Below are positions 1 to 22,629 of a DNA stretch of 64,000 nt, in pieces. The position numbers and the translations under genes were made by a program. Under the pieces are notes generated by a model. That model searched no databases. It was not told where the DNA came from and worked only from the letters and a program-made list of their open reading frames with translations. The stretch comes from Escherichia phage slur02: sequence record NC_028927.1; one strand, given 5' to 3'. Numbering within the stretch: position 1 is the stretch's first letter; the number at the start of each line of letters is the position of its first letter.

Positions 1-65
1 CAATAAAATGCCTTATTAGATTTTTATCTTTATCATTGAGAGAATTAAAATAATCAGATTTTGAA

Positions 66-362
66 TTAATTTCCCTGGCCAAATTGAATCACCTTCAGTT
101 GACGTTTTAATTCTTTTATCATCTCTTCGTTCATCGCAATATAAAGATCGCGTAAAGCAGGTTTTAGCATTCCATTTGCTGGAGAACTAAATGGACATAC
201 ATAATCTTTTCCTACGAGCTTTTTGGTGAATTCCATATTACAGAACTTAAACCCCGGTTCATTGGTATAAATTCCCCAATTAGTTGACATCATTTTATTG
301 GCATATTCTAGTGCCTGGATTTGATTCATAATTCCATCAATTTGAAACTTTTTAATATTCAT
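66..362 (-). CDS. hypothetical protein (98 aa)
   Basis: Track ORF; 1-nt stop/start overlap with upstream ORF; same strand as flanking early genes. Confidence 0.45.
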   Translation of the reverse strand: MNIKKFQIDGIMNQIQALEYANKMMSTNWGIYTNEPGFKFCNMEFTKKLVGKDYVCPFSSPANGMLKPALRDLYIAMNEEMIKELKRQLKVIQFGQGN

Positions 363-823
363 TAGTAAAGGTCCTCAGAGTAAAGTTCTTTTTCACTACC
401 ACCACGTTCAATACGTACTTGTCCAGCGTAAGTTGCAATAATCATTGCTTCTTCACGTGTCCAATAATTACTATATTGGTCAATAAACCCTTGGTCATCA
501 TTACAAACTTGTTGAGTAACTAATTGAGGTTTAACTACATCTAAAACTTCTGCCATATCTTTAGAATAATGACGAGCACCTGGAATAATAAGAGTTCGTC
601 CATCTTTTAATTTAAAACGGTTGGCTGCACAAACAATTCGTCGTTGATACTTTTGGTTTTCATCCCAATACGCAGTCTGCCAACAGATTTCAGGAACTTC
701 TTTCAGAATATCTTCTTCTGTGCATTTATAACCATGCGCTTTAAATTTTTCAACAAGACTTTCTGGAGTTTCACGAGATAAAGGCACATTCAGCATTTTT
801 AAACGATTAATAAATGGGTTCAT
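362..823 (-). CDS. hypothetical protein (153 aa)
   Basis: Track ORF; ATGA overlap with ORF 820..1149. Confidence 0.5.
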
Positions 824-1149
824 TTAAACCATCCTTTAATACGTTGCCACAAAGTTTTCTGTTGAGCTTTGTTAACACCAATTGAGCGAATAACTGGTTG
901 AGATTCCTGGAATTCTTTATAATCAGCAAGGTAAATTTCGTAAGCTGCATCCGTAAATGAACTTATCGCCGCCATAAAATTATTGCGAATACCTACTGGA
1001 GCATCTTTACTTTCACGAATAATCATGTATTTACCAGTCTTAATCTTTACGATAGTTCCAAGATAAGCTCCATGGTACCAGATGTCCCACCCCTCTTGAG
1101 TGGGTTCTGCACAACGACGAAGTTCATTAACAATTTCTAACTTGTTCAT
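820..1149 (-). CDS. hypothetical protein (109 aa), immediately downstream of motA
   Basis: Track ORF; position corresponds to motA.1 of T4. Confidence 0.5.
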
Positions 1150-1159
1150 TATTTATTCC

Positions 1160-1795
1160 TCACAGTTCAGATGCTACGGTGATTACTGCTTCAATGTTTT
1201 CTGCCGAGCGTTTAATGTCAAGATACACATTACCGTTTTTAGCGATTTTACATGACATTCCGATATCAGTAAATTTCTGAATATGATGTTCCATCATTTT
1301 GTATCCAAAAATTCGCATATTTCCATTGTTGTTAATTTCAAAATTGCGAATTCCGTGAGTGCGTTTTTCTAAAATAGCAAGATAGTTACTGCGGTAAGTT
1401 TCAACCTTTTTAAGAACAAATCCATTTTCATCTAAAAGTTTTAACATGAAGTCTTTATCTTCTTCCATATCGGAAGTAATCTCACGAGCTTTACGAGTCG
1501 CCCGTTTTTTCAGTAGTTCAGGAGCATTTTCCTGCGCATATAAAGTTGCTGCATTTGAAATAATATCCTGAGCTTCACCAGTAATGATTAATCCATCACC
1601 AGATTTCTCCACCAGGCCTTTTTTAATCAATACCCCAATATTACTATTAACTACTGCGTTACCTAAATCTGGATGCACCTCACGAACTTCTGCAGCTGTA
1701 ATGAAATCTTTCTTAGCAATAGTAATTAAAATCGCAGCGGTTTTTTCATTCAGAACATCGTTAGAAGCTTTGATGATGTAAGTTACTTTAGACAT
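1160..1795 (-). CDS. motA: MotA, activator of middle-mode transcription
   Basis: 211 aa, N-terminus MSKVTYIIKASNDVLNEK matches T4 MotA as recalled; GGAG SD upstream; early promoter upstream. Confidence 0.9.
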   Translation of the reverse strand: MSKVTYIIKASNDVLNEKTAAILITIAKKDFITAAEVREVHPDLGNAVVNSNIGVLIKKGLVEKSGDGLIITGEAQDIISNAATLYAQENAPELLKKRATRKAREITSDMEEDKDFMLKLLDENGFVLKKVETYRSNYLAILEKRTHGIRNFEINNNGNMRIFGYKMMEHHIQKFTDIGMSCKIAKNGNVYLDIKRSAENIEAVITVASEL

Positions 1796-1829
1796 TTTCT
1801 AATCTCCGTAATTCTGTATCAGTAGTTGA

Positions 1830-1872
1830 TAGTTGTATAGTACCACAGTATGCTTTGGTTGTAAACCGTTTT
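1830..1872 (-). promoter_or_regulatory. T4-type early promoter upstream of motA
   Basis: Minus strand AT-rich UP region, GTTTAC -35, 17-nt spacer, TACTAT -10. Confidence 0.6.
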
Positions 1873-1896
1873 GTGAAAAAAATTTTAAAATAAAAA

Positions 1897-1916
1897 GGGA
1901 GAGCCAAGGCTCTCCC
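1897..1916 (-). terminator. intrinsic terminator hairpin
   Basis: GGGAGAGCC / GGCTCTCCC stem followed by U-tract on minus strand. Confidence 0.6.
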
Positions 1917-1921
1917 TAAAA

Positions 1922-2071
1922 TTACTGCATGACTGTGATAACTGTCATGATAACACGTTGAATTCCGAACGCAAGAAGACCTCCTGCTACGGCTGGAACA
2001 ACGCCTAAACCCGCCAGTAAAATGCTACCGGATACTAATGCAGCGCTTGTAATACCAATGAATGGACTCAT
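1922..2071 (-). CDS. small hydrophobic membrane peptide (49 aa)
   Basis: ORF below track cutoff, MSPFIGITSAALVSGSILLAGLGVVPAVAGGLLAFGIQRVIMTVITVMQ; ATGA overlap with gene 52 stop; hairpin terminator follows. Confidence 0.4.
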   Translation of the reverse strand: MSPFIGITSAALVSGSILLAGLGVVPAVAGGLLAFGIQRVIMTVITVMQ

Positions 2072-3396
2072 TTGATTTCCTCTAAATCTTTAGTGTATTC
2101 AGTAACTACATCAGTAGTTTTCCAATATTCGTTTTCTTCTTTCTTAGCTTTAGCTTCTTCAGCAAGTTTCTTCGCTTCATCGGAAGTCATATGAAAAATA
2201 TTCATTCCAACTAGTTTATCAACATAAGAAGAATACATATCGATTTTCGAAAGTTCTTCGGTCAGTTCTTTACGAGTTTTACCTTGTACAACAATTTCAC
2301 CTGAAATTACTTTCTTAATGAAATGTGCCTTGGCAAAGGCTAAACGAAAAGCTGACTCAGTTTCTTTGATTTTGTTATCAATTCGTTTTTGGACATAAGT
2401 TTTACGAACTTCAACAAAGTCTTTAATTAAATCGACTACGTTATCGTAAACTTGTAGCTTTCCTTTCTCATTAATAACGGTAATATTTTGGGAACGACGC
2501 TCAATCAACCCAAAGTCTTTCATAATTTTTGCATGGCGTTCTTCTTCATTATCGCTCAAAGAATATTCTTTACGGAATTTAACTTTAAAGCCAAAACCAT
2601 GCTCACCACAAGCATCATCCCATGTAATGAAGCCTTTATCTTCAAGTGGGTCTAAGATTTTACTCACATAAGTTTCACGATCATACTTATACGGAATCTC
2701 AGTGATGTGCATTTGAGTTCGTGAAGTAAACTTATATGTTCCACGAATTTCATATTGTCCATCAATTTCAACGACTTCACCACGAAATTCTGGGAATTCT
2801 ACCTTCGGTTTAGTTACTTTCTTTCCTTGAAGAGCTTGTAGTACAGCTTTCTTGACAGAAGAAACACTATGAGGAAGAATGTAAGTTGCATAACCAGTTG
2901 CAATACCGGAAACGCCATTAAGAAGAACAGTAGGAATAATAGGCAAATAGAAAGCAGGCGGAATGTGTTCTTTATCTTGATGTACCGGAGCATACTCAGT
3001 ATCTTTATATACGTTATAGAAATTTTTACTTACACGAGCAAAAATATAACGACTTGCTGCTGCTTTTTGGACAGTACGAGAACCAAAGTTTCCTTGACCA
3101 TCTAACAGAGGAAAGTTATTATTCCAAGTGTTAGCCATCAAAGCACCTGCGTCTTGCGCAGAGTTTTCACCATGATGATATCCAAGGTCCGCTACACCAC
3201 CTGCAATAGAAGCGAGTTTGTGAAACTTATCTTTATTTCCTCGTGCCAAATCAAGAGCTCGAGCAATAACAAATCGTTGAACTGGCTTAAATCCATCAAT
3301 CATATTTGGAATAGCACGATTTTCAACCGTGTACATAGCATAAGCCAATGCTTCATTATCAATGATACTTTTTAAATCGCGATTATTCAGTTGCAT
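2068..3396 (-). CDS. 52: DNA topoisomerase II medium subunit gp52 (GyrA-like)
   Basis: 442 aa, same length as T4 gp52; GyrA-like N-terminus (AIPNMIDGFKPVQRFV). Confidence 0.9.
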   Translation of the reverse strand: MQLNNRDLKSIIDNEALAYAMYTVENRAIPNMIDGFKPVQRFVIARALDLARGNKDKFHKLASIAGGVADLGYHHGENSAQDAGALMANTWNNNFPLLDGQGNFGSRTVQKAAASRYIFARVSKNFYNVYKDTEYAPVHQDKEHIPPAFYLPIIPTVLLNGVSGIATGYATYILPHSVSSVKKAVLQALQGKKVTKPKVEFPEFRGEVVEIDGQYEIRGTYKFTSRTQMHITEIPYKYDRETYVSKILDPLEDKGFITWDDACGEHGFGFKVKFRKEYSLSDNEEERHAKIMKDFGLIERRSQNITVINEKGKLQVYDNVVDLIKDFVEVRKTYVQKRIDNKIKETESAFRLAFAKAHFIKKVISGEIVVQGKTRKELTEELSKIDMYSSYVDKLVGMNIFHMTSDEAKKLAEEAKAKKEENEYWKTTDVVTEYTKDLEEIK

Positions 3397-3468
3397 AAAT
3401 TTACCATACTAGTGAATGTAGTGCCATAATAACATCAGAAATGAAAAGCACGACTTGAATTAATCCGA
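3397..3468 (-). CDS. very small hydrophobic ORF (23 aa), possible 52.1-like peptide
   Basis: MFGLIQVVLFISDVIMALHSLVW read on minus strand just upstream of gene 52 start; weak SD. Confidence 0.2.
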
Positions 3469-3533
3469 ACATTATTCCGTAATATAATGCTATCAATAAA
3501 ATAGCAAGGGCTAATGAATAGCCCAAGATTTTC

Positions 3534-3692
3534 TTAATCATTAGTAGATAACAACACAAATGTTAAATATGCACACATACCCTGAGCTAAAGCTTGCGAA
3601 AACACACTGCTGGCATCAATACAGATAGTTAAAACACATGCTACTATCCAACAAATAAATGAAATAACTCCTAATAATTTTGCAATATTCAT
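3534..3692 (-). CDS. ac: Ac, small membrane protein (acriflavine sensitivity)
   Basis: 52-aa hydrophobic ORF MNIAKLLGVISFICWIVACVLTICIDASSVFSQALAQGMCAYLTFVLLSTND; GAGGA SD; position between 52 and stp as in T4. Confidence 0.6.
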   Translation of the reverse strand: MNIAKLLGVISFICWIVACVLTICIDASSVFSQALAQGMCAYLTFVLLSTND

Positions 3693-3699
3693 ATTTTCC

Positions 3700-3780
3700 T
3701 CACTGGTGTCCGAAGACGCCTTTGGTTTTAAGATTGTTACGATAGAACTGCATCACGTGTTCGTTGTGGAAATTACTCAT
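3700..3780 (-). CDS. stp: Stp peptide (26 aa), modulator of host Prr anticodon nuclease/restriction complex
   Basis: Hand translation [26 protein letters not shown]; TAATG overlap with ndd stop. Confidence 0.7.
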
Positions 3781-4238
3781 TAATATGCCTGCAAAACAAA
3801 TTTAAAGTTATCAGCCAACATACGGTTCATTTCTTCAAGTGTTTGATACTCAGAATGATGATTACGAGTAAACGCTAAAGCTAACTGTCCTTTTCCAAAT
3901 CCCGTCGTCAGAGGTTTCATCTTAGAAGCAGGCAGATAAAATACTGTGTATGGAACATTGTTATTTGCAATAGTACGTGCAAGTTGAGACCGACGCTGGC
4001 GAATATGACTTAGAACCGCACTGAATCCTTGCTTAGAACGCTGATTACCTACATAAAATCGTGCAGACACACATGGATTACTAAATGGACGACCATCTAA
4101 TTTACTTACTAAAAAGTAAAATCCAGGTTTAGATAAAATATCTTTATGCGGAGTTCCTAAAAACCATTCACCACCCTTGATTGTACCAATAACAGTTGCG
4201 CCTGCATTATTCAGATCAGTAACAGTCATGTATTTCAT
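3780..4238 (-). CDS. ndd: Ndd, nucleoid disruption protein
   Basis: Track ORF trimmed to internal ATG with GAGGA SD ([18 protein letters not shown]...), about 152 aa as in T4. Confidence 0.85.
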
Positions 4239-4298
4239 ATTAATTTCCTCTAAATTATTTTCTACTCCAAGGCCGCATAAATACACACGGCCATTAAA

Positions 4299-4514
4299 TT
4301 AATCGTCGCAGTCGACGCTCAATTCCCAAAACTCTTCTACAGTATAAGTTTCAGTATCATTTTCAATACAGAAACGTTCATTACTGTTATTTGCTAAAGT
4401 AGCGTTAACTGTCATTTTCTCGCTGGTGCTCTTAAGAGGTGAAATACGAATTAACTGATCACCGTTATCTAAACAGAAAATTTCACCAACTTTTACATCT
4501 TTAAAGATTTTCAT
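4299..4514 (-). CDS. hypothetical protein (71 aa)
   Basis: Track ORF in ndd-denB small-gene cluster. Confidence 0.45.
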   Translation of the reverse strand: MKIFKDVKVGEIFCLDNGDQLIRISPLKSTSEKMTVNATLANNSNERFCIENDTETYTVEEFWELSVDCDD

Positions 4515-4517
4515 AAT

Positions 4518-4631
4518 TCACCTCAAGGAGTATAAAATCCAAATGCAGTTGTTGACCATCCCATCCAATACGGAAAAATTTGCACCAATGTAAAACATAA
4601 GAATATAAAACCAAATGTTTAGTAAATTCAT
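4518..4631 (-). CDS. small hydrophobic peptide (37 aa)
   Basis: Hand-translated MNLLNIWFYILMFYIGANFSVLDGMVNNCIWILYSLR; TAATG coupling to upstream gene. Confidence 0.3.
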   Translation of the reverse strand: MNLLNIWFYILMFYIGANFSVLDGMVNNCIWILYSLR

Positions 4632-4828
4632 TATTTTACACCATTCCAAATTGTTTCAACCACAGATTTTAAACCATTTTGATGAATATCAATTCCGACT
4701 ACTGTCATCAAATAGATTCCAACTACAACTGAACCTAAGGCAAAAATCAGCATGAAAATGAATAAAGCCGGAAAAATATTATCGAAAAACCATTCAATAA
4801 ATGTAAAAGCACTGCGTTTACGCTTCAT
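4631..4828 (-). CDS. small membrane protein (65 aa)
   Basis: Track ORF trimmed to ATG with GAGGA SD (MKRKRSAFTF...); hydrophobic helix. Confidence 0.4.
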   Translation of the reverse strand: MKRKRSAFTFIEWFFDNIFPALFIFMLIFALGSVVVGIYLMTVVGIDIHQNGLKSVVETIWNGVK

Positions 4829-4835
4829 ATTTTCC

Positions 4836-4949
4836 TCACATAAATCCAAAGTAAACGTTTAATACATCAATCATTAAAACGATTGGGAATATACTCAAAA
4901 CTATTAGTATTATAACTACATTCCATATAGCTTTAATAATCTTTTTCAT
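4836..4949 (-). CDS. small membrane peptide (37 aa)
   Basis: MKKIIKAIWNVVIILIVLSIFPIVLMIDVLNVYFGFM; the longer track ORF contains an early promoter, so start moved to ATG after GGAGGAACAG. Confidence 0.35.
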   Translation of the reverse strand: MKKIIKAIWNVVIILIVLSIFPIVLMIDVLNVYFGFM

Positions 4950-5192
4950 TTTCTGTTCCTCCGTAGTTGATAGGGTAATAATACCACGGAAGAACAGTCC
5001 TGTAAACAACTTTTTTAAAAATATTCGTAATAAATGTGAATACCAACTACTACCGCTGAAACCTGTGCAACCCACCACGCACAAGCAATAAGTACAGAAT
5101 TCATAATTTTCATAATAACCTCATCACAAAAGTAAATGTTAAACAAATTACTGGAATACTAATTAACCAAACAAAACACCACCATAGTGAAC

Positions 5193-5465
5193 TCATAGCT
5201 CAATCTCAGCGATTTTCATTTCATTACTATTAATAGCCGCTTTAAGACTATCTGAAAGAATTACATTCCAGTGGTCATTCATATGACCATTAATTAAGCG
5301 TGTAATTTCTTCTGGAGTTGAAAAATAAGGCGTATCAGACTCCCAATGCGATAATCCTAAGCGAGTATAAATCATACCTTCATCATCGCTAGAATATTCA
5401 ACTGACACAAACTCATCAGTTATTTTATGTTTAGCGTAATAAAATTTAAATTTCATTTTACTCAA
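5193..5465 (-). CDS. hypothetical protein (90 aa)
   Basis: Track ORF; ATGA overlap with upstream ORF. Confidence 0.5.
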   Translation of the reverse strand: MSKMKFKFYYAKHKITDEFVSVEYSSDDEGMIYTRLGLSHWESDTPYFSTPEEITRLINGHMNDHWNVILSDSLKAAINSNEMKIAEIEL

Positions 5466-5668
5466 TAATCCGCTAAAAGATCGACGATTGCATCACGAAG
5501 ACACTTATTCGCAATACGTTTAAGAGCAATTTCAGTTTCTGGAGCATTTTGAATAATCATCGAATTCAACTCAGCCTCAGCAAACTGAAGTTCTTTAACT
5601 AGTTCAGCTTTATATTTCCCTTGCCCTTTCTTAGCCTTTGCCCGTTTTAATTCAGCTGTAGTAAACAT
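5462..5668 (-). CDS. hypothetical protein (68 aa)
   Basis: Track ORF trimmed to ATG after conserved leader TTGGAGAATAAAATG. Confidence 0.5.
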   Translation of the reverse strand: MFTTAELKRAKAKKGQGKYKAELVKELQFAEAELNSMIIQNAPETEIALKRIANKCLRDAIVDLLADY

Positions 5669-5695
5669 TTTATTCTCCAAATCCGTATCAGTTGA

Positions 5696-5738
5696 TAGTT
5701 GTATAGTACCACAGTCCTTGTGGTATGTAAACTGTTTT
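5696..5738 (-). promoter_or_regulatory. early promoter with conserved leader
   Basis: GTTTAC, about 17 nt, TACTAT, followed by leader ending TTGGAGAATAAAATG. Confidence 0.55.
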
Positions 5739-5750
5739 ATGAAATTTTTT

Positions 5751-6308
5751 TTAAATAGAAAGATACCATCCGTTGTAGTTGCTTTTTCTTACAACCTTAC
5801 GAAGGTCTTCTCTGTCACCGATGAACTTCGGAGTGTACTGGATGACACCTGGATGAATTTCTTTAGTGTTGAATATAATTATACAGTCCGCGACTTGATG
5901 ATTTAGAATGGGCCCTAGATTTATTCCAGAACCGTATGGATACTCTCCGCTGCATCCTGTTGTTACAGAAATCCAACGTGAGTCAGTTTGGTGTGTCTTA
6001 ACTTCTACACGAAGCCCGCAGTATCTTGGATGCGCCAATACATCCCATGCGTATGTATACGGGTCATTAACATCTTCTTGACCTTTATTAACATATCCGC
6101 TTAGCCAATCTGCCACAAAAAACTCTGCGTACACAGCGATACGACATCTTTCGATAACTTCTGCTTTATCCTGGTTCGGGTTTTGTTTTAAAGAGTATCT
6201 TGCTGTATCAGCAATTTTGACCTTCATTTCACTAGTCAAGTCACTGTTCGATAGGGTAAATGTCGGAATCTGAAATAGTCTCTGTAAACCCGGATTCGTT
6301 TTCTGCAT
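5751..6308 (-). CDS. denB: DenB, endonuclease IV
   Basis: 185 aa as in T4 DenB; synteny next to rIIB. Confidence 0.8.
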   Translation of the reverse strand: MQKTNPGLQRLFQIPTFTLSNSDLTSEMKVKIADTARYSLKQNPNQDKAEVIERCRIAVYAEFFVADWLSGYVNKGQEDVNDPYTYAWDVLAHPRYCGLRVEVKTHQTDSRWISVTTGCSGEYPYGSGINLGPILNHQVADCIIIFNTKEIHPGVIQYTPKFIGDREDLRKVVRKSNYNGWYLSI

Positions 6309-6570
6309 TTAGACTTTCCTTTTTGCCGCTGAGATAGGCGTTATATACTTTAAGAGTACCATAATAAATTCGGTCATTTTCATCTAAAGACTCGCGGTCA
6401 AGTTCATCGAGCTCCTTTTTATCCATGACTATAACATCATTACAGTAAAGAAACCCAAGTTTTTCGTGACCAAACTCAAATTTATTACAGTACACAATAT
6501 TAGCGTGATGATTTCCGTGCAGTTTAATCTCTTTTATGTCGGAATCACCGATATTCATACAATAAATCAT
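6241..6570 (-). CDS. hypothetical protein (109 aa)
   Basis: Track ORF; overlaps denB 5' end so one of the two starts is probably internal. Confidence 0.45.
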   Translation of the reverse strand: MIYCMNIGDSDIKEIKLHGNHHANIVYCNKFEFGHEKLGFLYCNDVIVMDKKELDELDRESLDENDRIYYGTLKVYNAYLSGKKESLNAENESGFTETISDSDIYPIEQ

Positions 6571-6587
6571 AATTTTTCCTTAAAACA

Positions 6588-6605
6588 AAAGGGCCGAAGC
6601 CCTTT
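6588..6605 (-). terminator. UUCG-tetraloop hairpin
   Basis: AAAGGGC-UUCG-GCCCUUU then U-rich run. Confidence 0.5.
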
Positions 6606-6608
6606 ATT

Positions 6609-6803
6609 TTACTTGAATTGTGCAATTCTTTTCTCTAGACATTCAGCATAAGATTTCATTGAGATGAACTGTGAAAGTAGTAGTTCTTGCTCAACTGCAC
6701 TAACTGTTAGAAACTTTGCGCTTTCTAAAAATTTGTTCAGTGCATTAATTTTGAGCATTAATTGATCGTATTCTTCTTTTACTCGTGCTTGATAACCTAA
6801 CAT
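6609..6803 (-). CDS. hypothetical protein (64 aa)
   Basis: Track ORF between rIIB and denB; flanked by hairpins. Confidence 0.5.
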   Translation of the reverse strand: MLGYQARVKEEYDQLMLKINALNKFLESAKFLTVSAVEQELLLSQFISMKSYAECLEKRIAQFK

Positions 6804-6831
6804 AATTTTCCTTAGTTAAGGGACGAAGCCC

Positions 6832-7770
6832 TTATTTAAATTGTTCAGTAACGTCTTCAACTACTTCGTATTGGCAGGTACGCATTTTAGCGTCGTTGTA
6901 ATCAATCGGAATTGATACTACATCGCGAGGATGTACTTTAACTTTTACAACTCGGCTGGTTGAACTGCCAAAGTGACGAATATAAGATTTAGAACACACA
7001 TGCAGACCACGAGAACAAGTTTGTGTATCATCGTCATTCACACGAGTACGTGGCATTTTAACTACTTTACCAGGACTGTTATCAAAGGTGTTTGAGTGAC
7101 AGTCAAAGTAATTGCTGCGAACTACTTTCCAAGCATAGAAGTAACCATCTTCTGTAATTTCAATATCGTTTGCTACCAAGAAATCAAAGAGTCGAGATAC
7201 AGCTTTTTGGCTTGGGTTTTCCAACAGATTTTCCAAGAACGGAAAATAAAATTCAAAGTTTTCGCCTTTTTCCATCGAGTCAAGAATACGATCAACCAAA
7301 CCAGACCGCAATTCGATATTTTGATAGAACAAGCTTCCACCTTCAATTCGAACATCACCGGAAATATATTTTTCAACAGCGCGACGAACATTAATTTTTT
7401 GTGCAGCTTCTTCCAGCTTATCCGCTACAAGCAGATTAAGAATTTCCTGGAAGTTTGAATGAGTATTAGGAGTTGCGTTATAAGTTACACCGTCAACAGT
7501 AATTGAAATGAATTTTTTAGATGCATTCCAAATAATGTCAGATTTAGCAACTGGAGCAATAACTGCATCGCTATTAACTTTAACTGTAATATCACCGCTA
7601 ATAGTAACTTTAGAGCGTTTAGCTTCTTCAGCATTTTTCAAAACACGACGGATTGTGTCAACTGATACATCCTTCCAATAAGCCAATTCCTGTTGGGTGT
7701 AATTACCGCTTGAATACAGTTTAACAATTTCAGCTTGTTCGTTTTTGGTCAGGCATTTAATATTGTACAT
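6832..7770 (-). CDS. rIIB: RIIB protein
   Basis: 312 aa, same length as T4 rIIB; synteny with rIIA. Confidence 0.9.
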   Translation of the reverse strand: MYNIKCLTKNEQAEIVKLYSSGNYTQQELAYWKDVSVDTIRRVLKNAEEAKRSKVTISGDITVKVNSDAVIAPVAKSDIIWNASKKFISITVDGVTYNATPNTHSNFQEILNLLVADKLEEAAQKINVRRAVEKYISGDVRIEGGSLFYQNIELRSGLVDRILDSMEKGENFEFYFPFLENLLENPSQKAVSRLFDFLVANDIEITEDGYFYAWKVVRSNYFDCHSNTFDNSPGKVVKMPRTRVNDDDTQTCSRGLHVCSKSYIRHFGSSTSRVVKVKVHPRDVVSIPIDYNDAKMRTCQYEVVEDVTEQFK

Positions 7771-7781
7771 AATTTTCCTTA

Positions 7782-9959
7782 TTAGGCCGCAAGGGCCTTC
7801 ATAGTTTTAGCGATTTGGGAAACTTCATCATCACTTAAAGAGTTGCGATAACCGATGAAGTCGGAAACAATACGGAATTTCTTGGTAAACTCAGCAACCA
7901 TTTTATCACTGTTTTTTGAAGCATTATTTGATAATACATCAAAAAGATTAGTTACTGTCCAGATGTCATGACCAATGGTATCTTTTCCACCATTAAAATA
8001 TACACCGCGCAATGAACTAACTATATTAGCGAGTCGTGTATATTCTTCAGAAACTTCATCTGTGCTGAAGTACTTCATCATAAAATCTAGTTCAGGATAC
8101 TTGATAATTTTATCAATATATCGTTGAGCTGAACTTGAATAACCTACGTACTTATCATAATCTACATCATCAAAAGCATCTACATATAAATCGCGCAAAG
8201 CTTCAAAAATACATTGGCACTGACCGAGTTCTTTTACCTTTTTCTGCAAAAGCGGACGAATAACATAAAACTCATTAATGCCAATAATATTAGCCATACG
8301 AATCAAAATATTCATAGATGGATGACAAAGAGATGTAGTACCATCCATAGAGAAAATATCAGAACGATGCATATACGCTACATAACCAGTAATTTCATCT
8401 GCTTCTGATGTGAGCGTAAATAATTCCTCTTTTTCCCAGCGCCCGTCTTTAATTTCAAACTTAAATGCTGTAGCAGCTTTAGGACGAGGAGCTTTACTTT
8501 TAACTACCTTTGGAATATAGCTTTTAACTAAAGCTTCAATTTCTGACAAATAATGAATGTTAACTTCATCACTTTCAAACATCGCCATAATATCAGGGAG
8601 TAAATCAATCTGCGATTCTACTTCTGGATTAATAAACAGAAGACGCTCATTATGATGAATATTCAGAGTGTTATTAAATTCACTATCATCTAACGCACGT
8701 GCTAATCCACGGACAATATTAACACGATTTTTAATATTATCAATAACGATATTAATTTTTGTTGTATTAATACCAAACAGACGATAACTTGATGCAACGG
8801 CTGAAGTTTCATGACTTTGCTTAATGCGCTTCAGTCGAGGGTCAAGATTTACTTCATACACAACTCCCGCGTTGCATAACTTACTGTCAGGTTCAAACAT
8901 GCTCTGCATCTTTTTATATGACAGATTTTTAGTCGTGAATTTGACTGAATTGCTAATCATATAATCTCGAGCAGAATACCCCATCTTCATCAATTCACGG
9001 TATGTATGACGAGGAGATGTAGATTCTTTAAATCGTTTTACATCTTCATTAAATGCTTTCTCACTGAGTTCTTTAACTCGTTCAATAATATTTTTACGAG
9101 TACGATCATCCAGTGAAAGAGCCTCGCGAGATGGAGCAATATCAAGCGAACCCATTGGAAACTTAATGTAATTCACTTCATTGCGGATGCTTAACCAGTT
9201 ACGGTCTCTAATAACACCATCGATAGGATAAACAATACCGCCGTAGATAGCATATAATCCACCACGATCTGGCCAGTATCTTTCTGGATTTACACCGTAA
9301 TAATCATCAAAATCCGGAAAATAATCAATTTCGCGGTCAAGACCATTAATGATAGCCAAATCTTTGAACGGTCGCATGATATAAGAAACTTCATAAGCAA
9401 AGTTTCTAAAGTCTTTTTCTTCAACTGGAACTACGATTTCAATACCAGTTTTATCATCTGGACCCATTTCTTTTACGAATGTAGGTTTAATCTGTGGACC
9501 ATCACCATCCATATAAGCTACATAACCACGAATTTCACCTTTATGATACGAAGTAATACTAAATGTATCAGTATAACTAAACGGAGATTTAGAACCTAAA
9601 CCAAATCCGCCAATGAAATCGTTAGATTCAGCCTTAGATGAACTGAAGTATGAATTATACAGACCAGGAGAATTATCATCACCCTGAATATCAAAATCAC
9701 TCATACCGGGACCAAAATCTCGGCAAACAAATCGTGGATCTAAACGTCCAGGAACTTGTATGATAAATTTTTCAGGATTTCCATTGAGTGCATGGGCATC
9801 AATCATGTTGGTAATCAATTCACGGACTACTGCGCGAATTTTGTTTGTATACAAATCAGATGACAGAATTTTAAATACTTTAGGAGATGCTGTGATGCTA
9901 AATGCTTTTGATTTAGAACCATTACCAAGAATTGTTTCTTTTTCAGTGGTGATAATCAT
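7782..9959 (-). CDS. rIIA: RIIA protein (GHKL ATPase-like N-terminus)
   Basis: 725 aa, same length as T4 rIIA; motif [11 protein letters not shown]. Confidence 0.9.
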
Positions 9960-9969
9960 AATTTCCTCA

Positions 9970-10173
9970 TTAATTCATATTACGCTTAATAACTTCAGCA
10001 ACTTCTAGTAGTTCATCTTTAGTTGCGGTGTCGGATTGAATTTTATCTCTAATATCTTTAAAGCGGTTTTTAAACTCTTCGGCTTCTCCCATATCGAAAA
10101 AGCGTTGAATAATTCTATATTCTCGATGAACTGCTTTATCAAAAAGTTCTAAATTTACTTTATATGATTTCAT
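9970..10173 (-). CDS. hypothetical protein (67 aa), rIIA.1 position
   Basis: Track ORF; early promoter upstream at about 10195-10230. Confidence 0.55.
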
Positions 10174-10191
10174 TTCAATATCCTCATTTGC

Positions 10192-10234
10192 CCAATTAAT
10201 TATACCACATCCTTGTGGTAAAGTAAACTACTGG
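10192..10234 (-). promoter_or_regulatory. early promoter upstream of rIIA.1/rIIA
   Basis: GTTTAC, 17 nt, TATAAT with TG upstream; palindromic spacer CCACAAGGATGTGG. Confidence 0.6.
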
Positions 10235-12048
10235 CTCATCCATTCTTTACGAAGGTCAGCATTATCTCCCATGAGCATTTCAAAAAGCTCTTTCCAGTTC
10301 TCAGGAAGTTTAACAACATCATATACTGGATTTTGAATCATCTCACGATATTCAGATTTTTCCAAAGAGCCAAGTCCTTTAATATAACGGATGCTATGTT
10401 TAGGTAGAGCATCTTTGGCACTCTCATATTCAGCGACTGTATAAAACCATTCTTGTTTTTTACCGACCTGAGCGATGATTACCGGAGTTTTGACAAAGCG
10501 AATTCGTCCTTGCTCAAACAATTCTGGCCAATTACTAAAAAACCCGAGCAGAGAAGGATAAATGCTTCCTAGACCATCATGGTCAGCATCAGTCATAATA
10601 GCAATATTGCGATAATTCAAGTTTTCAGCTTTTTCACCAAGAACTAGACCAGTGATTGCGCAAATATCAAATAGTTCTTTGTTTTTAAGCATATCAGCAT
10701 ATGACATACCCCAACTGTTGAGAACTTTACCACGCAATGGATAACCACCATGAAGTTCTTTATCACGAACATCAATAAGATATCCGATAGCCGAATCACC
10801 CTCAGTCAGGAAAAGAGTAGTGTCAGCATCTTTACCACAAAGATTCGCTTTGATATGTTTATGAACTTTAGCTTTAGAAGCCTTTTTAGCTGCTTTAGTT
10901 TCAGCTGCTTTTTCTGCTGCCAATTTACGGGCCAAGGCAGCTTCAATAATTGGCATCAAAATAGCTTCATTATTTAGAATAGCGCGTGAAATCTTTTTAG
11001 CATCAAGCTGAATATGACTACGAATTTCGCCAAATGGAGAAGTCAAACGCTCTTTAGTTTGAGAATCAAATCGCATGTTTTTCATATCACGAACAAACAT
11101 AACGATAGTCAAACATTCTTTAACACGTGCTTTAGTTACATCAATTTTGAATTTACGTTTGATTTGTGGAATAAGGTCTTCACAAATATCATCCATAACG
11201 CAGTCAATGTGATGGCCACCATTCTTAGTGTGAATGTTATTCACATAAGTTAATTGACGAAATCCATCCGGTGAACGACCAACCGCAATAGAACAATTTT
11301 CTTGTTCTTGAACAATAGCATGTTCATCATACTGTCGTGCATATTTCTTAAAATTGCCCTGAACCTTTTTACCATTAAAGGTAAATTGAATATCAGGATA
11401 AACAACAGCAAGTGTCTGGAGACGATCTAGTGTAATGTCAAGATAAACTTGGGACAGCTCATTAGTTTCAAATGACATAAAATCAGGAATGAAAGTAACA
11501 CGAGTTCCTTTCCATTTTCCAGGAATAGTTTCCCAGGATTTATTTTCCATGCCATTTGAACAACGAACTACAATATTATTTTGACCATCGCCAGTTTCAC
11601 CGACAAACATCACAGAAAAAATGTTAGTTAAACTAGAACCAACACCATTCATACCACCGGTGACGCGTTCTTTATCATCACCAAAGTTACCACCTGCTTT
11701 TGGAATAGTCCAAGCAGCAACTGGGCCAGGAATTTCTTCACCGGTAGGTGTTTTAACCATCGCTTGTGGAATACCGCGACCGTTATCTTCAACTGTTACC
11801 TGATTATTTTTAATGGTAACATTAATTTTATTTGCGAATTTAAACTTAGTACGAATACCTTCATCTACTGAGTTATCGATAATTTCATCAATAAGCTTAA
11901 CAAGACCAGGTACATACTGAACACTTTCCCATTTACCAAACAGAAAGCGCTCATGCATTTCATTAGCTGAAGAGCCAATGTACATGCCGCTACGCTTTTT
12001 GATATGTTCAATATCGCTCAGAATTTTAATTTCATTCTTAATCATCAC
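10228..12048 (-). CDS. 39: DNA topoisomerase II large subunit (GyrB-like), uninterrupted
   Basis: 606 aa; GHKL ATPase motif EIIDNSVDE and Toprim LTEGDSA; one continuous ORF with no gene 60 split. Confidence 0.9.
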   Translation of the reverse strand: MMIKNEIKILSDIEHIKKRSGMYIGSSANEMHERFLFGKWESVQYVPGLVKLIDEIIDNSVDEGIRTKFKFANKINVTIKNNQVTVEDNGRGIPQAMVKTPTGEEIPGPVAAWTIPKAGGNFGDDKERVTGGMNGVGSSLTNIFSVMFVGETGDGQNNIVVRCSNGMENKSWETIPGKWKGTRVTFIPDFMSFETNELSQVYLDITLDRLQTLAVVYPDIQFTFNGKKVQGNFKKYARQYDEHAIVQEQENCSIAVGRSPDGFRQLTYVNNIHTKNGGHHIDCVMDDICEDLIPQIKRKFKIDVTKARVKECLTIVMFVRDMKNMRFDSQTKERLTSPFGEIRSHIQLDAKKISRAILNNEAILMPIIEAALARKLAAEKAAETKAAKKASKAKVHKHIKANLCGKDADTTLFLTEGDSAIGYLIDVRDKELHGGYPLRGKVLNSWGMSYADMLKNKELFDICAITGLVLGEKAENLNYRNIAIMTDADHDGLGSIYPSLLGFFSNWPELFEQGRIRFVKTPVIIAQVGKKQEWFYTVAEYESAKDALPKHSIRYIKGLGSLEKSEYREMIQNPVYDVVKLPENWKELFEMLMGDNADLRKEWMSQ

Positions 12049-12072
12049 TTATCCTCGTTTGGTTTCGGGAAT

Positions 12073-12098
12073 ATTATACTCCAGTAATCATAAAGCTA
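12073..12098 (-). promoter_or_regulatory. MotA-dependent middle promoter candidate for gene 39
   Basis: MotA-box-like AGCTTTA, 12-nt spacer, TATAAT; immediately after UUCG hairpin. Confidence 0.5.
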
Positions 12099-12115
12099 AA
12101 GGCCCGAAGGCCTTT
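12098..12115 (-). terminator. UUCG-tetraloop terminator downstream of lipoprotein gene
   Basis: AGGCC-UUCG-GGCCU then UUU. Confidence 0.55.
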
Positions 12116-12384
12116 TATTTAAAACGGATAGTCGAATCCTTGAAGAATAGACCAGAACATACTGTTCCTTCTACTTTCTGCCCAGTAGGTCCAACAGCAC
12201 GAAATCCAGTGTGTTGGAAATCATTTTCAGAGCAACCGAACCAGTTATATCCAGTGATTTCAATATTAGTAAAACCGCTTGAAGATAAAACTTTGGTTGC
12301 ATTATCAGCATCAGTACATCCTACTAAAGATACTGCTAATACTAATGCTGCAATAGAACGATTAATATATTTCATAATTTTCAC
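12115..12384 (-). CDS. small lipoprotein (89 aa)
   Basis: Signal peptide with lipobox (LVGC); terminator hairpin downstream. Confidence 0.6.
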   Translation of the reverse strand: MKIMKYINRSIAALVLAVSLVGCTDADNATKVLSSSGFTNIEITGYNWFGCSENDFQHTGFRAVGPTGQKVEGTVCSGLFFKDSTIRFK

Positions 12385-12752
12385 TTAAATTTAATGGCTT
12401 GAAGAAGACTAATAATTCTCAAGCGACTTCTTTCATCTTTAACTGTAAAAGAAAGAGGGTCACCAGATTTCATAGTAATAGTACATTCAAAATCAAAATC
12501 TTCGGGAACTTCTTCGAATAGGTCAAATTCTTCATCATAAATTAGAACATTACTCTGAAAACTGTGAAGAATTTTTCCATCATTTCCAGATGCTGTACTA
12601 ATCATTGTAACATTATTACCTTTCATATCTTCAACGATAAATTCGCTTGTAGATATTACATTACTAATAGAACCATTCCTATAAATAGCAGAAAATAGAT
12701 ATTTCTTTTCTTCACCTTCGCGAATACGATACTTCTTACCGATTTTAAACAT
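12381..12752 (-). CDS. hypothetical protein (123 aa)
   Basis: Track ORF; ATGA coupling. Confidence 0.55.
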   Translation of the reverse strand: MFKIGKKYRIREGEEKKYLFSAIYRNGSISNVISTSEFIVEDMKGNNVTMISTASGNDGKILHSFQSNVLIYDEEFDLFEEVPEDFDFECTITMKSGDPLSFTVKDERSRLRIISLLQAIKFK

Positions 12753-12754
12753 AA

Positions 12755-12931
12755 TTACCCTTTAAGTAAGTCGTAAAAACCGCCATTCACATGCTTAGGA
12801 GCAGAAGGCCGACGAGTAGACAGACGATGACATTTAGGACAAACATCATTTTCTCGTTCAGAAATCTTTTTAATTTTTTCATATTCATGCCCGCAATCTT
12901 CGGATTGGCATTTATAATCATACATTGGCAT
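12755..12931 (-). CDS. small zinc-ribbon protein (58 aa, two CxxC pairs)
   Basis: Hand-translated MPMYDYKCQSEDCGHEYEKIKKISERENDVCPKCHRLSTRRPSAPKHVNGGFYDLLKG; coupled to flanking genes. Confidence 0.45.
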   Translation of the reverse strand: MPMYDYKCQSEDCGHEYEKIKKISERENDVCPKCHRLSTRRPSAPKHVNGGFYDLLKG

Positions 12932-12933
12932 AA

Positions 12934-13353
12934 TTATTCCTTAAAGTGTGCTTTCAACATCTGATACAAGGACCATGCCTGTTCATTATTTTCAATAGTA
13001 ACTTTCATGACCGGGAATTCTGTGAAATCTTCTATTTGTTCTTGCTCTTCCTGCTTTTGCTCTTCGGACGCTTGATATGGATTTCCAACTTCGTCAAAGA
13101 ACTCTGCTTCATTCGTGGAGAGCCAGATAAAGTTTTCATCAAGGATATCACCGCCTGTTGCGTATCCAACCGTGCCAGTAGATGTCACAATTTTAGTAGG
13201 ACGACTGAGATGGTCAACATCTAAAATTTTAAAAGGTTCCATACCTAAACGTCGTGCGTAGATTCCGTTATCAGTATGGTCTTTAATAAAAGCTTCTTGA
13301 GCTTGTTTATTTTTAAATTGATACCATTTATTAACTTCAAATCTAATAGCCAT
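12934..13353 (-). CDS. hypothetical acidic protein (139 aa), goF position
   Basis: Track ORF; Glu/Gln-rich segment; synteny only. Confidence 0.5.
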
Positions 13354-13568
13354 TAATAAATTTCCTTCCAGTAAGTTGTACCGTCTTCAGTGATTTCACG
13401 GAATACACCATAAATCGGTTGTTTATCACCAACCTTTTCATACACATAAACCGAAGTCAAGTGAGTAAACTTGATGGTGTGTTCCTTTTGAACTACTACC
13501 AAATCTGGATCGAATAATACATCTTCAAATTCGTCATTAGTACAATTCTGAACAATTTTACGTTTCAT
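13353..13568 (-). CDS. cef: Cef-like small protein (71 aa)
   Basis: 71 aa, position between goF-like and motB-like genes; synteny only. Confidence 0.45.
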
Positions 13569-13581
13569 TACAATTTCCTCA

Positions 13582-13851
13582 TTAATTAAACAGTGGAGCG
13601 ATGCGTTTCAGAAGAGTAGCAGCACCTTTGGCGAATTTTACATCATGAAAAACAGTTTCTTCTTCCGTTACAACACGAGCTTTAATGTTTTCACAATCCC
13701 AATTTTTGCGAACAATCTTCAAAAGCTGCAGTAAATCTTTACATTCAGCAATATCGATAACACATCCACGAGAATCTTCCATTATCGCACGATAACCGTA
13801 AGCCATACCATAATCGTTGAAAGATTGCTCGATGATAATTAAGTTTTCCAT
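13582..13851 (-). CDS. hypothetical protein (89 aa)
   Basis: Track ORF trimmed to ATG after TTGGAGAATAAAATG leader. Confidence 0.5.
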   Translation of the reverse strand: MENLIIIEQSFNDYGMAYGYRAIMEDSRGCVIDIAECKDLLQLLKIVRKNWDCENIKARVVTEEETVFHDVKFAKGAATLLKRIAPLFN

Positions 13852-13948
13852 TTTATTCTCCAAGTTGTTTTCTGTATCAGTAGTTGATATTGATATAGTA
13901 CCATAATCAACTACTGATGTATATAGTTTTATGAAAAAATTTTAAACT

Positions 13949-14437
13949 TTATGCATAGAGAGCATTGCTATAGTGTTTAATCCAACTTTCAGGAATGACT
14001 TTGTATGTTCCTAAAAATACCACATTGTATAACTTAACGCCATCTTCTACCCATTGATCGGTAATATATCCACACATAGCACGAGTATAAGCAGCCTTTC
14101 CATCATCTTTGATAAATTTAAATTCGCAAGGAGCAATGAACTTAATAGCTTGACCGAGTTTCCACTTAAAGTCTACGCCTACATGTGAAGTATCAATCGT
14201 TTCAATTACTTTAGCAGGAACAGCTTTCAAAAACGCAGATTCAAGAAATTTCGCACGAACATAGCCAAACTGGGGTTTAGACTTTCCATCTTTAGGAATG
14301 ATACGCACTTTTACTTCAGAATCTTCATCTTTAACGCCATGTTTAAGCTGAATGCTTACAATTTCGACCAATTTTCCTGCTGCTTTAGAGCGGGATTTAT
14401 CAGATACACGAGCTAATTCACCAATATTAATAATCAT
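13949..14437 (-). CDS. motB: MotB-like protein (162 aa)
   Basis: Length and position match T4 motB; C-terminal domain shared with ORF 14511..14948. Confidence 0.55.
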   Translation of the reverse strand: MIINIGELARVSDKSRSKAAGKLVEIVSIQLKHGVKDEDSEVKVRIIPKDGKSKPQFGYVRAKFLESAFLKAVPAKVIETIDTSHVGVDFKWKLGQAIKFIAPCEFKFIKDDGKAAYTRAMCGYITDQWVEDGVKLYNVVFLGTYKVIPESWIKHYSNALYA

Positions 14438-14475
14438 AGTTATTTCTCACTTGTTAAAAAGATTTTATACTCCGC

Positions 14476-14517
14476 GGGACCATTATACTCTGGTCCCAAG
14501 AGTTTGTAAACTAGCTT
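14476..14517 (-). promoter_or_regulatory. early promoter upstream of motB-like gene
   Basis: GTTTAC, 17 nt, TATAAT; -10 lies in loop of inverted repeat GGGACC...GGTCCC. Confidence 0.55.
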
Positions 14518-14948
14518 ACACGAACATTAATCACTGCGCTGCGAGGAACTACGGAGTACTCTCCAGCATGAACTACATTAAGAAGTTCAACGCCATCTTC
14601 AATCCACTGGTCAGTTACCCAACCGCCAATCGGATTCGCGAATGGACGACGAATATAAACTGCCTTACACAACAAATCAGTCGGGTCTTCAGGTTTTTCA
14701 ATTTCTGTCAATAGACTAAAATCTTTTTCATAAATAATAAGCGGTGATACCATTCCATAATAGTTTCTAATTTCAATATACATCATACCGATAAGAATTC
14801 CGCTATTAACACTAATAACAGTAAAAGGATATCCGCCAGTTAAACCAAGAAGTTCACAAAACTTATTATGAGCTGTATTAGACAGTACCGAAAAATTCTT
14901 AATTTCATCAAATTTTTTCAATTGATAAACAGCATTATTTTTAATCAT
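14511..14948 (-). CDS. MotB paralog (145 aa)
   Basis: C-terminal motif TDQW(V/I)EDGV(K/E)L.NVV shared with 13949..14437. Confidence 0.5.
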   Translation of the reverse strand: MIKNNAVYQLKKFDEIKNFSVLSNTAHNKFCELLGLTGGYPFTVISVNSGILIGMMYIEIRNYYGMVSPLIIYEKDFSLLTEIEKPEDPTDLLCKAVYIRRPFANPIGGWVTDQWIEDGVELLNVVHAGEYSVVPRSAVINVRVS

Positions 14949-14958
14949 AATTTTCTCT

Positions 14959-15462
14959 TTAATCTAAGGTAATAAAGCCTTTTAATTCGGCATGGGATTT
15001 GCGGAACATTACTTGGTGCCCACCAATGATAACTTCATCTTCAGGAACTTCGTATACAGCAAGATAAAATCCTTTAGAAGCTAATTCTTCACGCTCTTCT
15101 CGTGTGAACCATCTCATCATATCATATTCACTAGCGAAAGCAAAATGATAAAGAGCTATAAACCATCCTGGAATATAGTGATCTACGCCTACATATTCCT
15201 CTTTCTCAAATTTAGTATTAATTGCTATATTAGCATTTTTAACTAATAATTTGTCTTCGCGCGGAAGAGGAATTCTTTTGTTATCATTACTATGATGTGT
15301 AAAATTAGGTCTATCATAACCTACGTGTAATAACCACTCTTCGCTCCATGAATCTATTATACTCCTGTATGGCGTTATTTGAACACAAAGATTTCGACGT
15401 ATTGTTATAGCATCTTCACAATTAAGAATACTAAACGATGATTCAACACGGTAAATTTTCAT
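14959..15462 (-). CDS. hypothetical protein (167 aa)
   Basis: Track ORF trimmed to ATG with GAGGA SD (MKIYRVESSF...); early promoter upstream. Confidence 0.5.
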   Translation of the reverse strand: MKIYRVESSFSILNCEDAITIRRNLCVQITPYRSIIDSWSEEWLLHVGYDRPNFTHHSNDNKRIPLPREDKLLVKNANIAINTKFEKEEYVGVDHYIPGWFIALYHFAFASEYDMMRWFTREEREELASKGFYLAVYEVPEDEVIIGGHQVMFRKSHAELKGFITLD

Positions 15463-15485
15463 TTTATTATCCTCAGTAGCTATGG

Positions 15486-15522
15486 TGTTATAATACCACA
15501 ACTAACCGAGGAAGTAAACAAC
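15486..15522 (-). promoter_or_regulatory. early promoter
   Basis: GTTTAC, 17 nt, TATTAT. Confidence 0.5.
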
Positions 15523-15525
15523 TTT

Positions 15526-16209
15526 TTATCGTTTTGTTGGAAGAGATAGAGGATCGCACTCTTCCTCTGACGGAGCATCTTCAAGACCCATAGCATATCG
15601 CAAAGCATACTTCATCATCAGGATGTCTTTCGCACAATCATGAATAGAATCATGCGCAACGAATCCATCTAAAGTTCCCTTTGGAAGAGGACATGTAGTC
15701 ATATCACGAACAAGCAGAAGTGCTTCAATTCTGGTACGAATATCACGCTGATTCCAGAATTTACAAGGTTCTAACTTAAACGTATCAAGCTCATTCTCAG
15801 AAACGCCATTAAGACGTTGAATATCGCGAATGAGATCGACTAAAATTGGAAAATCAAACGACATTCCACGGCACCAACCTTGAGATTTCCAAGGATCGAT
15901 ATTATGCGCATTGATGTAATCATTAAATTTTGCAATACCATCGATAGTGCTTACATCTTCATCTGATGGTGCAATATTTTTTCGAGCTTCAGGAGATTGA
16001 TTTTTCCACCATTCGATAGTGCTTTTAGTAAAAAGACGATGTCCCTTTTGGCTTTTTAAATCAAACTTGATTTTAATGCCGCGTGAAACTAATTCATCAA
16101 AGGATTCAACTACTTCTGGATTAGGGTCAAAGGCAATAACAGCCAAATCAATAACAGCTGCCTTTTCACCGCTTCCCATTGTTTCAAAATCTATAATAAA
16201 ATCAAACAT
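15526..16209 (-). CDS. dexA: DexA, exonuclease A (DnaQ-like 3'-5' exonuclease)
   Basis: 227 aa as in T4 DexA; Exo I motif DFETMG near N-terminus. Confidence 0.8.
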   Translation of the reverse strand: MFDFIIDFETMGSGEKAAVIDLAVIAFDPNPEVVESFDELVSRGIKIKFDLKSQKGHRLFTKSTIEWWKNQSPEARKNIAPSDEDVSTIDGIAKFNDYINAHNIDPWKSQGWCRGMSFDFPILVDLIRDIQRLNGVSENELDTFKLEPCKFWNQRDIRTRIEALLLVRDMTTCPLPKGTLDGFVAHDSIHDCAKDILMMKYALRYAMGLEDAPSEEECDPLSLPTKR

Positions 16210-16484
16210 TAAATTTTCCTCGCTAAATCGCGAATTTGACCTACAGTATAATCTTGGATATAAACTTTATTAATGGGCTCATCAATAAATTTTGCCATAG
16301 ATTCAATATCTTTTTGTATCTCTTCAAGACTGTATACTATCTTTAAAGCTTTTTCGCGAATAGTAACATTATCAGGTCCTGGATTTTCCTCAATGACAGC
16401 TTTGACATTTGTCATAAGAGATTTAAACTGATGCAAACTTAATTCAATCATTAATAATCGCCTTATAAAGATGGCTAATTTCAC
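16209..16484 (-). CDS. hypothetical protein (up to 91 aa), paralog of 16444..16704
   Basis: Shared motif LEEI..D.......I.DY..G.I..L; start uncertain. Confidence 0.45.
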   Translation of the reverse strand: MKLAIFIRRLLMIELSLHQFKSLMTNVKAVIEENPGPDNVTIREKALKIVYSLEEIQKDIESMAKFIDEPINKVYIQDYTVGQIRDLARKI

Positions 16485-16704
16485 CTAAAATGTAATCACT
16501 GATTGTAACAGTTTTTACTTCACCACAAAAGAATTCTAACGCAATCAAATCTCGTTCAATTTCTTCCAATTGAAGCATTAACTTGCCTGATTCAATTTTT
16601 ACATTTCTGCGATTTTTACTATAAGCTATTTCATATATTTCGCTCACTTTATCTTGAAGTAGATAAAACTGGTCTTTAGTTATTTCCACGAATAGCTTCC
16701 TCAA
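16444..16704 (-). CDS. hypothetical protein (86 aa), paralog of 16209..16484
   Basis: Track ORF; sequence similarity to neighbour. Confidence 0.45.
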   Translation of the reverse strand: MRKLFVEITKDQFYLLQDKVSEIYEIAYSKNRRNVKIESGKLMLQLEEIERDLIALEFFCGEVKTVTISDYILGEISHLYKAIIND

Positions 16705-16710
16705 ATTTAA

Positions 16711-18030: not shown

Positions 18031-18338
18031 CGTAAATTCCCTGCAATTGGTATACTAACAATACGCCCAGTATCTAAAATTCGCTGATATAATCTTTGCG
18101 TGTCTACATCAGGCTTAACATGTTTAACTTCTATTTTATTAAACCAAAATTTACGTGGGGTCTCAACTAATCTCGGAATTCCCATACCTAAAGCTAGTCG
18201 ATACTGCTCTTTAAGAGTAGTAAATACTTTATCAGCAATCTCCCTTTCAAAAAATACAGCAGGACGATGTTCATCAAGTGGAACTGGCGCTGTAAATCCG
18301 TCTTTGTCTCGGTAAACTATCGCATATACATAAACCAT
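18027..18338 (-). CDS. hypothetical protein (103 aa), dda.1 position
   Basis: Track ORF; ATGA overlap with dda. Confidence 0.55.
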   Translation of the reverse strand: MVYVYAIVYRDKDGFTAPVPLDEHRPAVFFEREIADKVFTTLKEQYRLALGMGIPRLVETPRKFWFNKIEVKHVKPDVDTQRLYQRILDTGRIVSIPIAGNLR

Positions 18339-18339
18339 A

Positions 18340-19086: not shown

Positions 19087-19117
19087 ATTTTTCTCACATC
19101 TTACGGACGGTTAACTA

Positions 19118-19156
19118 CTTATACTATAACATTTTTACTTTAACTTGTAAACAACT
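19118..19156 (-). promoter_or_regulatory. early promoter upstream of srd-like gene
   Basis: GTTTAC, about 18 nt, TATAGT. Confidence 0.5.
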
Positions 19157-19208
19157 TTATGAAAAATGCTTTAAAACTTTCATGGTATAATGAATCTAAG
19201 TCCTTCCA

Positions 19209-20431: not shown

Positions 20432-20454
20432 GATAGCCTCCGTATACTTCAGAA

Positions 20455-20490
20455 GCTATCATATCATCGTTAGAAAGGAAAGTAAACAAC
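20455..20490 (-). promoter_or_regulatory. early promoter upstream of modB
   Basis: GTTTAC, about 17 nt, TATGAT. Confidence 0.5.
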
Positions 20491-20498
20491 TTTTTGAA

Positions 20499-20681: not shown

Positions 20682-20689
20682 ATTAATTC

Positions 20690-21160: not shown

Positions 21161-21313
21161 GTGATTTCCTCTTGCCTACTAATGGGCCGTCAGGAATTTT
21201 GTTTTCCTGGATATATTTCTCATTTTCTTCCATCATTTTACTGCCAATTTTAAGAAGCAAATCCAGTGCTTCATTTGCTTTAGCTTTAGCCTCTTCCAGC
21301 GTCATATCTTTGT

Positions 21314-22626: not shown

Positions 22627-22629
22627 AAA

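Follow-up and report, generated by a model that had tools for sequence, protein, structure and literature searches.

A T4-type stp gene between ndd and ac in Escherichia phage slur02, and related peptides in siphoviruses

The Stp peptide of bacteriophage T4 is a delayed-early product that is both necessary and sufficient to activate PrrC, a latent tRNA-Lys anticodon nuclease (PMC3014915). Namely, PrrC is kept inactive by the restriction enzyme EcoprrI and is unmasked by Stp in conjunction with dTTP, the hydrolysis of GTP and EcoprrI sites that are unmodified in the DNA, while the tRNA that it cuts is mended, in T4, by polynucleotide kinase-phosphatase and RNA ligase 1 (PMC3014915). A review from 2025 (PMC12707154) still treats the mode in which Stp inhibits the restriction enzyme as unknown, and our search of the literature found no structure of an EcoprrI-PrrC-Stp complex. 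A shared logic, in which a restriction inhibitor is sensed and an abortive-infection effector is freed as a result, is found in the pair formed by T7 Ocr and PARIS (PMC9122126, PMC12409349), and Ronin is likewise triggered by anti-restriction proteins (preprint 10.1101/2023.04.06.535777). The two arrangements do differ, however. In particular, Ocr is a DNA-mimic protein without any sequence relation to Stp, and while it is EcoprrI that keeps PrrC latent, PARIS can do without a restriction enzyme as a partner. A claim that Stp itself acts as an activator of PARIS (preprint 10.1101/2024.01.29.577857, citing Rousset et al. 2022) was set aside in the present analysis; in Rousset et al. 2022 (PMC9122126), the trigger of PARIS is Ocr, and PrrC and Stp are compared with it only conceptually. 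Finally, a T4 Stp-like peptide in phages TLS and Stevie was already noted in the announcement of the phage Stevie genome (PMC4319613).

Here, we describe the stp locus of phage slur02, as it appears in a window of 64 kb (1..64000), which is the whole stretch of DNA that was analysed. The gene, its two junctions and its neighbours are the following:

3700..3780, minus strand: stp, a coding sequence of 26 codons followed by TGA, with an ATG start (from the list of open reading frames and its translation)
3778..3782, minus strand: TAATG, the overlap of the ndd stop and the stp start (the same junction is present in T4, T6 and Dhakavirus 04086)
3698..3701, minus strand: GAGG, the ac ribosome-binding site, which shares bases with the stp stop TGA at 3702-3700 (read from the sequence)
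3780..4238, minus strand: ndd, nucleoid disruption protein, 152 amino acids, immediately upstream of stp (Pfam PF06591, 317.8 bits)
3534..3692, minus strand: ac, acridine resistance membrane protein, 52 amino acids, immediately downstream of stp (PHROG 2501)
3401..3541, minus strand: 52.1, small membrane protein, 46 amino acids (43 of 46 residues identical to T4 gp52.1; PHROG 3595)
2068..3396, minus strand: gene 52, topoisomerase II medium subunit, which fixes the T4-type gene order

A preliminary description of this DNA had placed a 26-codon ORF between ndd and ac, joined to ndd by TAATG, and all of these details match the list of open reading frames and the sequence itself. Namely, base 3780 is common to the ndd stop codon TAA (3782-3780) and to the stp start codon ATG (3780-3778), which together give TAATG, and it is likely that the translation of stp is coupled to that of ndd through this overlap. 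On the other side, ac starts seven bases beyond the stp stop, and the GAGG in front of it is invariant in the slur02 window, in T4 and in phage FelixPlatter. The genes 52, 52.1, ac, stp, ndd and ndd.1 lie in this order on one strand, exactly as they do in T4. The neighbouring proteins are close to their T4 counterparts as well: slur02 Ndd (152 amino acids) and T4 Ndd (151 amino acids) have 149 identical residues, while slur02 Ac retains 51 of the 51 T4 residues and carries one inserted Thr near its C-terminus. As a side remark, slur02 Ndd reads ...KLDGRPF... where T4 Ndd reads ...KLGGPF..., and it also carries D11N. At the DNA level, the 921 bp around stp are 100% identical to those of Escherichia phages slur04, slur11 and slur13, all of them T4-like (genus Tequatrovirus), and slur13 (LN881737.1, positions 3881..28880) matches the initial 25 kb of the window with 100% identity.

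We are highly confident that this ORF is the orthologue of T4 stp in a T4-like phage and that, as homology suggests, it would have the T4-type role towards type IC restriction enzymes and PrrC. T4 Stp (NP_049878.1; NC_000866 165505..165585) is likewise a peptide of 26 amino acids, and 25 of the 26 residues, that is, residues 1-24 and 26, are identical in the two phages. The coding sequences differ at 3 nucleotides, of which 2 are synonymous, while the remaining one makes a conservative exchange of Arg25 for His (R25H, CGC to CAC). What is more, T4 stp also lies between ndd and ac, shares the TAATG with ndd and has a stop codon overlapping the ribosome-binding site of ac. Among the protein families, Pfam PF08133, 'Anticodon nuclease activator family', matches the slur02 peptide with 70.8 bits (E = 5.5e-20; the curated cut-off of the family is 25 bits), with residues 1-26 aligned to model positions 1-26, and the score against PHROG 6763, which is described as 'activator of host PrrC lysyl-tRNA endonuclease', is 70.8 bits as well (E = 1.2e-19). 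The alignment with T4, the two family scores and the T4 gene order bear out the preliminary identification of the ORF as Stp. The peptide is widespread, too: a tblastn search with it returned 822 phage records, 59 of them at an identity of at least 99% and 413 at 95-99%, and in about 59 database records the peptide is identical to that of slur02. In the near-identical BASEL phage FelixPlatter, the same His25 codon is present and the ORF is annotated as 'type IC restriction inhibitor Stp'. Finally, the peptide is under purifying selection. Namely, in a comparison with the Kagunavirus homologue, whose gene has 80% nucleotide identity, there are 11 synonymous and only 2 non-synonymous codon differences, which shows that selection acts on the peptide.

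Would the exchange of arginine for histidine at position 25 make slur02 Stp inactive? Judging from the work on T4, the H25 variant is expected to be functional. In particular, the loss-of-function (suppressor) mutations of T4 stp cluster at residues 4-14 (PMC3014915, summarising Penner et al. 1995), and the N-terminal 18 residues of Stp are almost invariant among the relatives of T4, while the remainder is polymorphic (PMC3014915). In slur02, both residues 4-14 and the N-terminal 18 residues are as in T4, and R25H falls inside the last 8 residues. Deletion of the last 8 codons of T4 stp makes both activities only moderately lower (PMC3014915), and since residue 25 belongs to a tail whose complete removal has such a limited effect, one can expect that its substitution is tolerated.

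For the remaining steps, we infer the timing of expression, the binding of the target, the activation of PrrC and the repair of tRNA in slur02 from the work on T4. Following the T4 scheme, slur02 Stp would be made early, from an ndd-stp-ac transcript, and with its translation coupled to that of ndd. It would then act on type IC complexes such as EcoprrI and EcoR124I, blocking restriction while sparing modification. In the minority of hosts that carry prrC in a type IC locus, this same interaction would free PrrC and lead to the cutting of tRNA-Lys, whereupon the polynucleotide kinase-phosphatase and the RNA ligase 1 of the phage, encoded far outside the window, would heal and reseal the tRNA. 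The central step, already put forward in the preliminary description, namely that Stp inhibits the type IC enzyme EcoprrI and so activates PrrC, agrees with the literature (PMC3014915, PMC12707154). It had also been anticipated there that tRNA repair enzymes would be encoded elsewhere in the genome, and this turns out to be right for the genome lineage. Within the 64-kb window itself, a tblastn search for Pnk, Rnl1 and Rnl2 yielded a best E of 0.69, and none of them is present. Outside the window, pnk, rnlA and rnlB are found in the lineage: slur04 encodes a Pnk of 302 amino acids with the domains HAD_PNKP (199 bits) and AAA_33 (P-loop kinase, 83 bits), an Rnl1 of 374 amino acids with the Pfam domains RNA_lig_T4_1 and T4_Rnl1_C, and an Rnl2 of 334 amino acids, likewise confirmed by Pfam. 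In slur13, a 909-bp ORF at the position of pnk (143270..144178) is labelled 'Zeta toxin', and an RNA ligase is annotated at 145928..147052. What the presence of stp shows is that slur02 has the standard T-even set of stp, pnk, rnlA and rnlB.

The further proposal that the presence of stp implies that the phage meets prr-type hosts, on the other hand, goes beyond the evidence, as stp is passed down in the T-even phages as a whole and type IC enzymes in general are targeted. Indeed, the stp locus is found at the DNA level in 549 records, and the number of records with the peptide at an identity of at least 90% is similar, while Stp is directed at the type IC enzymes as a class and not at PrrC as such (PMC3014915). 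Nor is Stp alone a predictor of repair genes, since it is also carried by siphoviruses that are free of Pnk and RNA ligase. The siphovirus genes concerned are the following:

Ro145c2YLVW (Kagunavirus), 2501..2578 of the examined locus: stp ORF, unannotated, passes the PF08133 cut-off
BEK2 (Braunvirinae), 2483..2575 of the examined locus: stp ORF of 30 amino acids with a GTG start, unannotated, passes the PF08133 cut-off
SA30RD (Tunavirus), 2501..2581 of the examined locus: stp ORF with a GTG start, unannotated, passes the PF08133 cut-off
BS5 (Skatevirus), 2501..2584 of the examined locus: stp ORF, peptide MSNWHNEHIMQWYRRRIKAITNSYEVQ, unannotated, passes the PF08133 cut-off
TLS (Tlsvirus): gp05, annotated as stp in the record

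The PF08133 scan of siphovirus peptides covered Ro145c2YLVW, BEK2, SA30RD and BS5. In these four phages the stp ORFs sit in gaps between annotated genes, and the gene contexts of the siphovirus homologues are altogether quite unlike the T-even locus. The core SN[FW]HNEH[VI]MQ[FW]YR is common to at least four unrelated lineages of enterobacterial phages, and the Skatevirus form of Stp is found, at an identity of at least 80%, in about 130 siphovirus records. The T1-like form, represented by TLS gp05 and by Citrobacter phage Stevie, belongs to the same Pfam family and has the core S-[NS]-[FW]-H-N-E-H-[VI]-M-Q-[FW]-Y-R, but its C-terminal half is unrelated to that of slur02 (HRIKKMLNSTNC), and its context is without ndd or ac. 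As for the repair genes, Pnk, Rnl1 and Rnl2 were not detectable by tblastn (E up to 1) in the whole genomes of Ro145c2YLVW and BS5, while in the whole genome of TLS the gene 'pnkP' (3132..3695) matches only the phosphatase domain of Pnk, and there is no RNA ligase. The idea of a mobile module made of ndd and stp was also considered, for which the gene preceding stp in Tunavirus SA30RD would have to be an Ndd homologue; this ORF gives no Pfam match, and the idea was dropped.

A different question is what slur02 itself gains from an inhibitor of restriction. The window contains several genes for the hypermodification of cytosine:

30153..30995, minus strand: glycosyltransferase of the TAGT family at the beta-gt position (annotated in slur04 as beta-glucosyl-HMC-alpha-glucosyltransferase)
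30992..31732, minus strand: gene 42-like enzyme of the thymidylate synthase family
42380..43582, minus strand: alpha-glucosyltransferase (PF11440, 784.6 bits)
23298..23816, minus strand: gp56-like protein

Owing to their cytosine hypermodification, T-even phages were at most very weakly sensitive to the six restriction-modification systems against which they were tested (PMC8594841). With hypermodified T-even DNA nearly insensitive to restriction, it is doubtful how much slur02 benefits from a peptide directed against type IC enzymes. Together with the strong purifying selection on the core of the peptide and its occurrence in at least four unrelated phage lineages, this can be read to mean that the ORF is a real Stp orthologue, but that its selected role concerns another host factor, e.g. 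a different Hsd-associated or decoy defence, the activation of PrrC being a side effect in rare hosts. In particular, the fact that the core is kept both in restriction-protected T-even phages and in siphoviruses without repair genes makes a broader target possible, and the mechanism of Stp being undescribed (PMC12707154) leaves space for it, as does the existence of Hsd-based decoy systems such as Ronin. The main target of Stp might then differ from the type IC enzymes, or exceed them, and consist, for example, of a conserved surface that Hsd-type complexes have in common with the defence modules lying within them; we regard this as a long shot. If it were true, the PrrC story would be a special case of a wider interaction between peptide and defence. 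However, the activities demonstrated for Stp are the inhibition of type IC enzymes and the activation of PrrC only, and our literature search turned up no further target. What is more, the T-even route of glucosylation is not seen in the siphovirus carriers, and plain anti-restriction explains the spread of the gene well. All in all, a selected role directed at some other host factor strikes us as improbable, and the T4-type role of Stp in type IC inhibition and PrrC activation is by far the preferred reading.

It could also be argued that it is the RNA that is conserved, through a hairpin and through the coupling of translation from ndd to ac, and that the short ORF is incidental. The element in question is the following:

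3705..3720, minus strand: hairpin in the stp mRNA, codons 21-25, GGCGUC-UUCG-GACACC (from folding energy)

Codons 21-25 of T4 stp (GGCGUCUUCGGACGCC), at its 3' end, fold into a stable C(UUCG)G hairpin whose stem of 6 bp is perfect (z -3.27, at -12.3 kcal/mol), and which stands just before the ribosome-binding site of ac (at about 3011..3026 of the examined T4 locus), and the overlap of this site with the stp stop would fit such a reading as well. In slur02, however, the G-to-A change of the His25 codon introduces a C.A mismatch, and the weakened hairpin has a folding energy of -6.8 kcal/mol (z -0.64). In T6, the tail of the peptide at its C-terminus differs, and CTTCGG is missing from the genes of the Kagunavirus, TLS, SA30RD and BS5, yet the peptide core is kept in them, and this in siphovirus contexts that differ from the T-even one. 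A hairpin that is weak in slur02 and absent from the siphovirus genes is thus not what maintains the ORF. Since, in addition, the codon differences are mostly synonymous and missense mutations of T4 stp abolish its function (PMC3014915), we give conservation at the level of RNA practically no credence next to selection on the Stp peptide. Hardly any weight, finally, can be given to the reading of a chance ORF without a product: very short ORFs are indeed common, with 54 of at least 20 amino acids in the 4-kb stretch around stp, and the record of slur04 is without this one, but E values of 5.5e-20 (Pfam) and 1.2e-19 (PHROG), 822 phage records and 25 of 26 residues in common with an experimentally characterised T4 peptide speak strongly against it.

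Several other elements around the gene were considered as well. An antisense ORF of 25 amino acids (3706..3783, plus strand) was rejected, as it mirrors stp and is without support. A promoter scan of 3300..6500 gave 14 promoter-like sites, against 13.2 expected in shuffled sequence; sigma-70-like sites do lie upstream of stp on the minus strand, e.g. at 5006..4978 and 4807..4778, with a total count that is not above that of the shuffled sequence. The terminator scan of the same region (3300..6500) gave a terminator-like match at 3705..3720 (plus strand), which corresponds to the stp hairpin read from the opposite strand. An Rfam search of the whole 64-kb window (1..64000) at gathering scores returned no family.

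The stp gene of slur02 is an already known gene, and its biology is textbook T4 biology, in a T4-like phage that has already been sequenced. What the present analysis adds to this is limited to gaps in annotation and to the caveat on inferring prr-type hosts. Concerning the former, genomes of Kagunavirus, Skatevirus and Drexlerviridae yield stp genes that are unannotated there, which is useful for catalogues of anti-restriction genes and for predicting the triggers of PrrC-type defence. The gaps extend to the closely related T4-like records too: in the slur04 record NC_042130.1 the annotation skips stp and passes directly from ac to ndd (149376..149464), and the deposited record of slur13 is likewise without stp.
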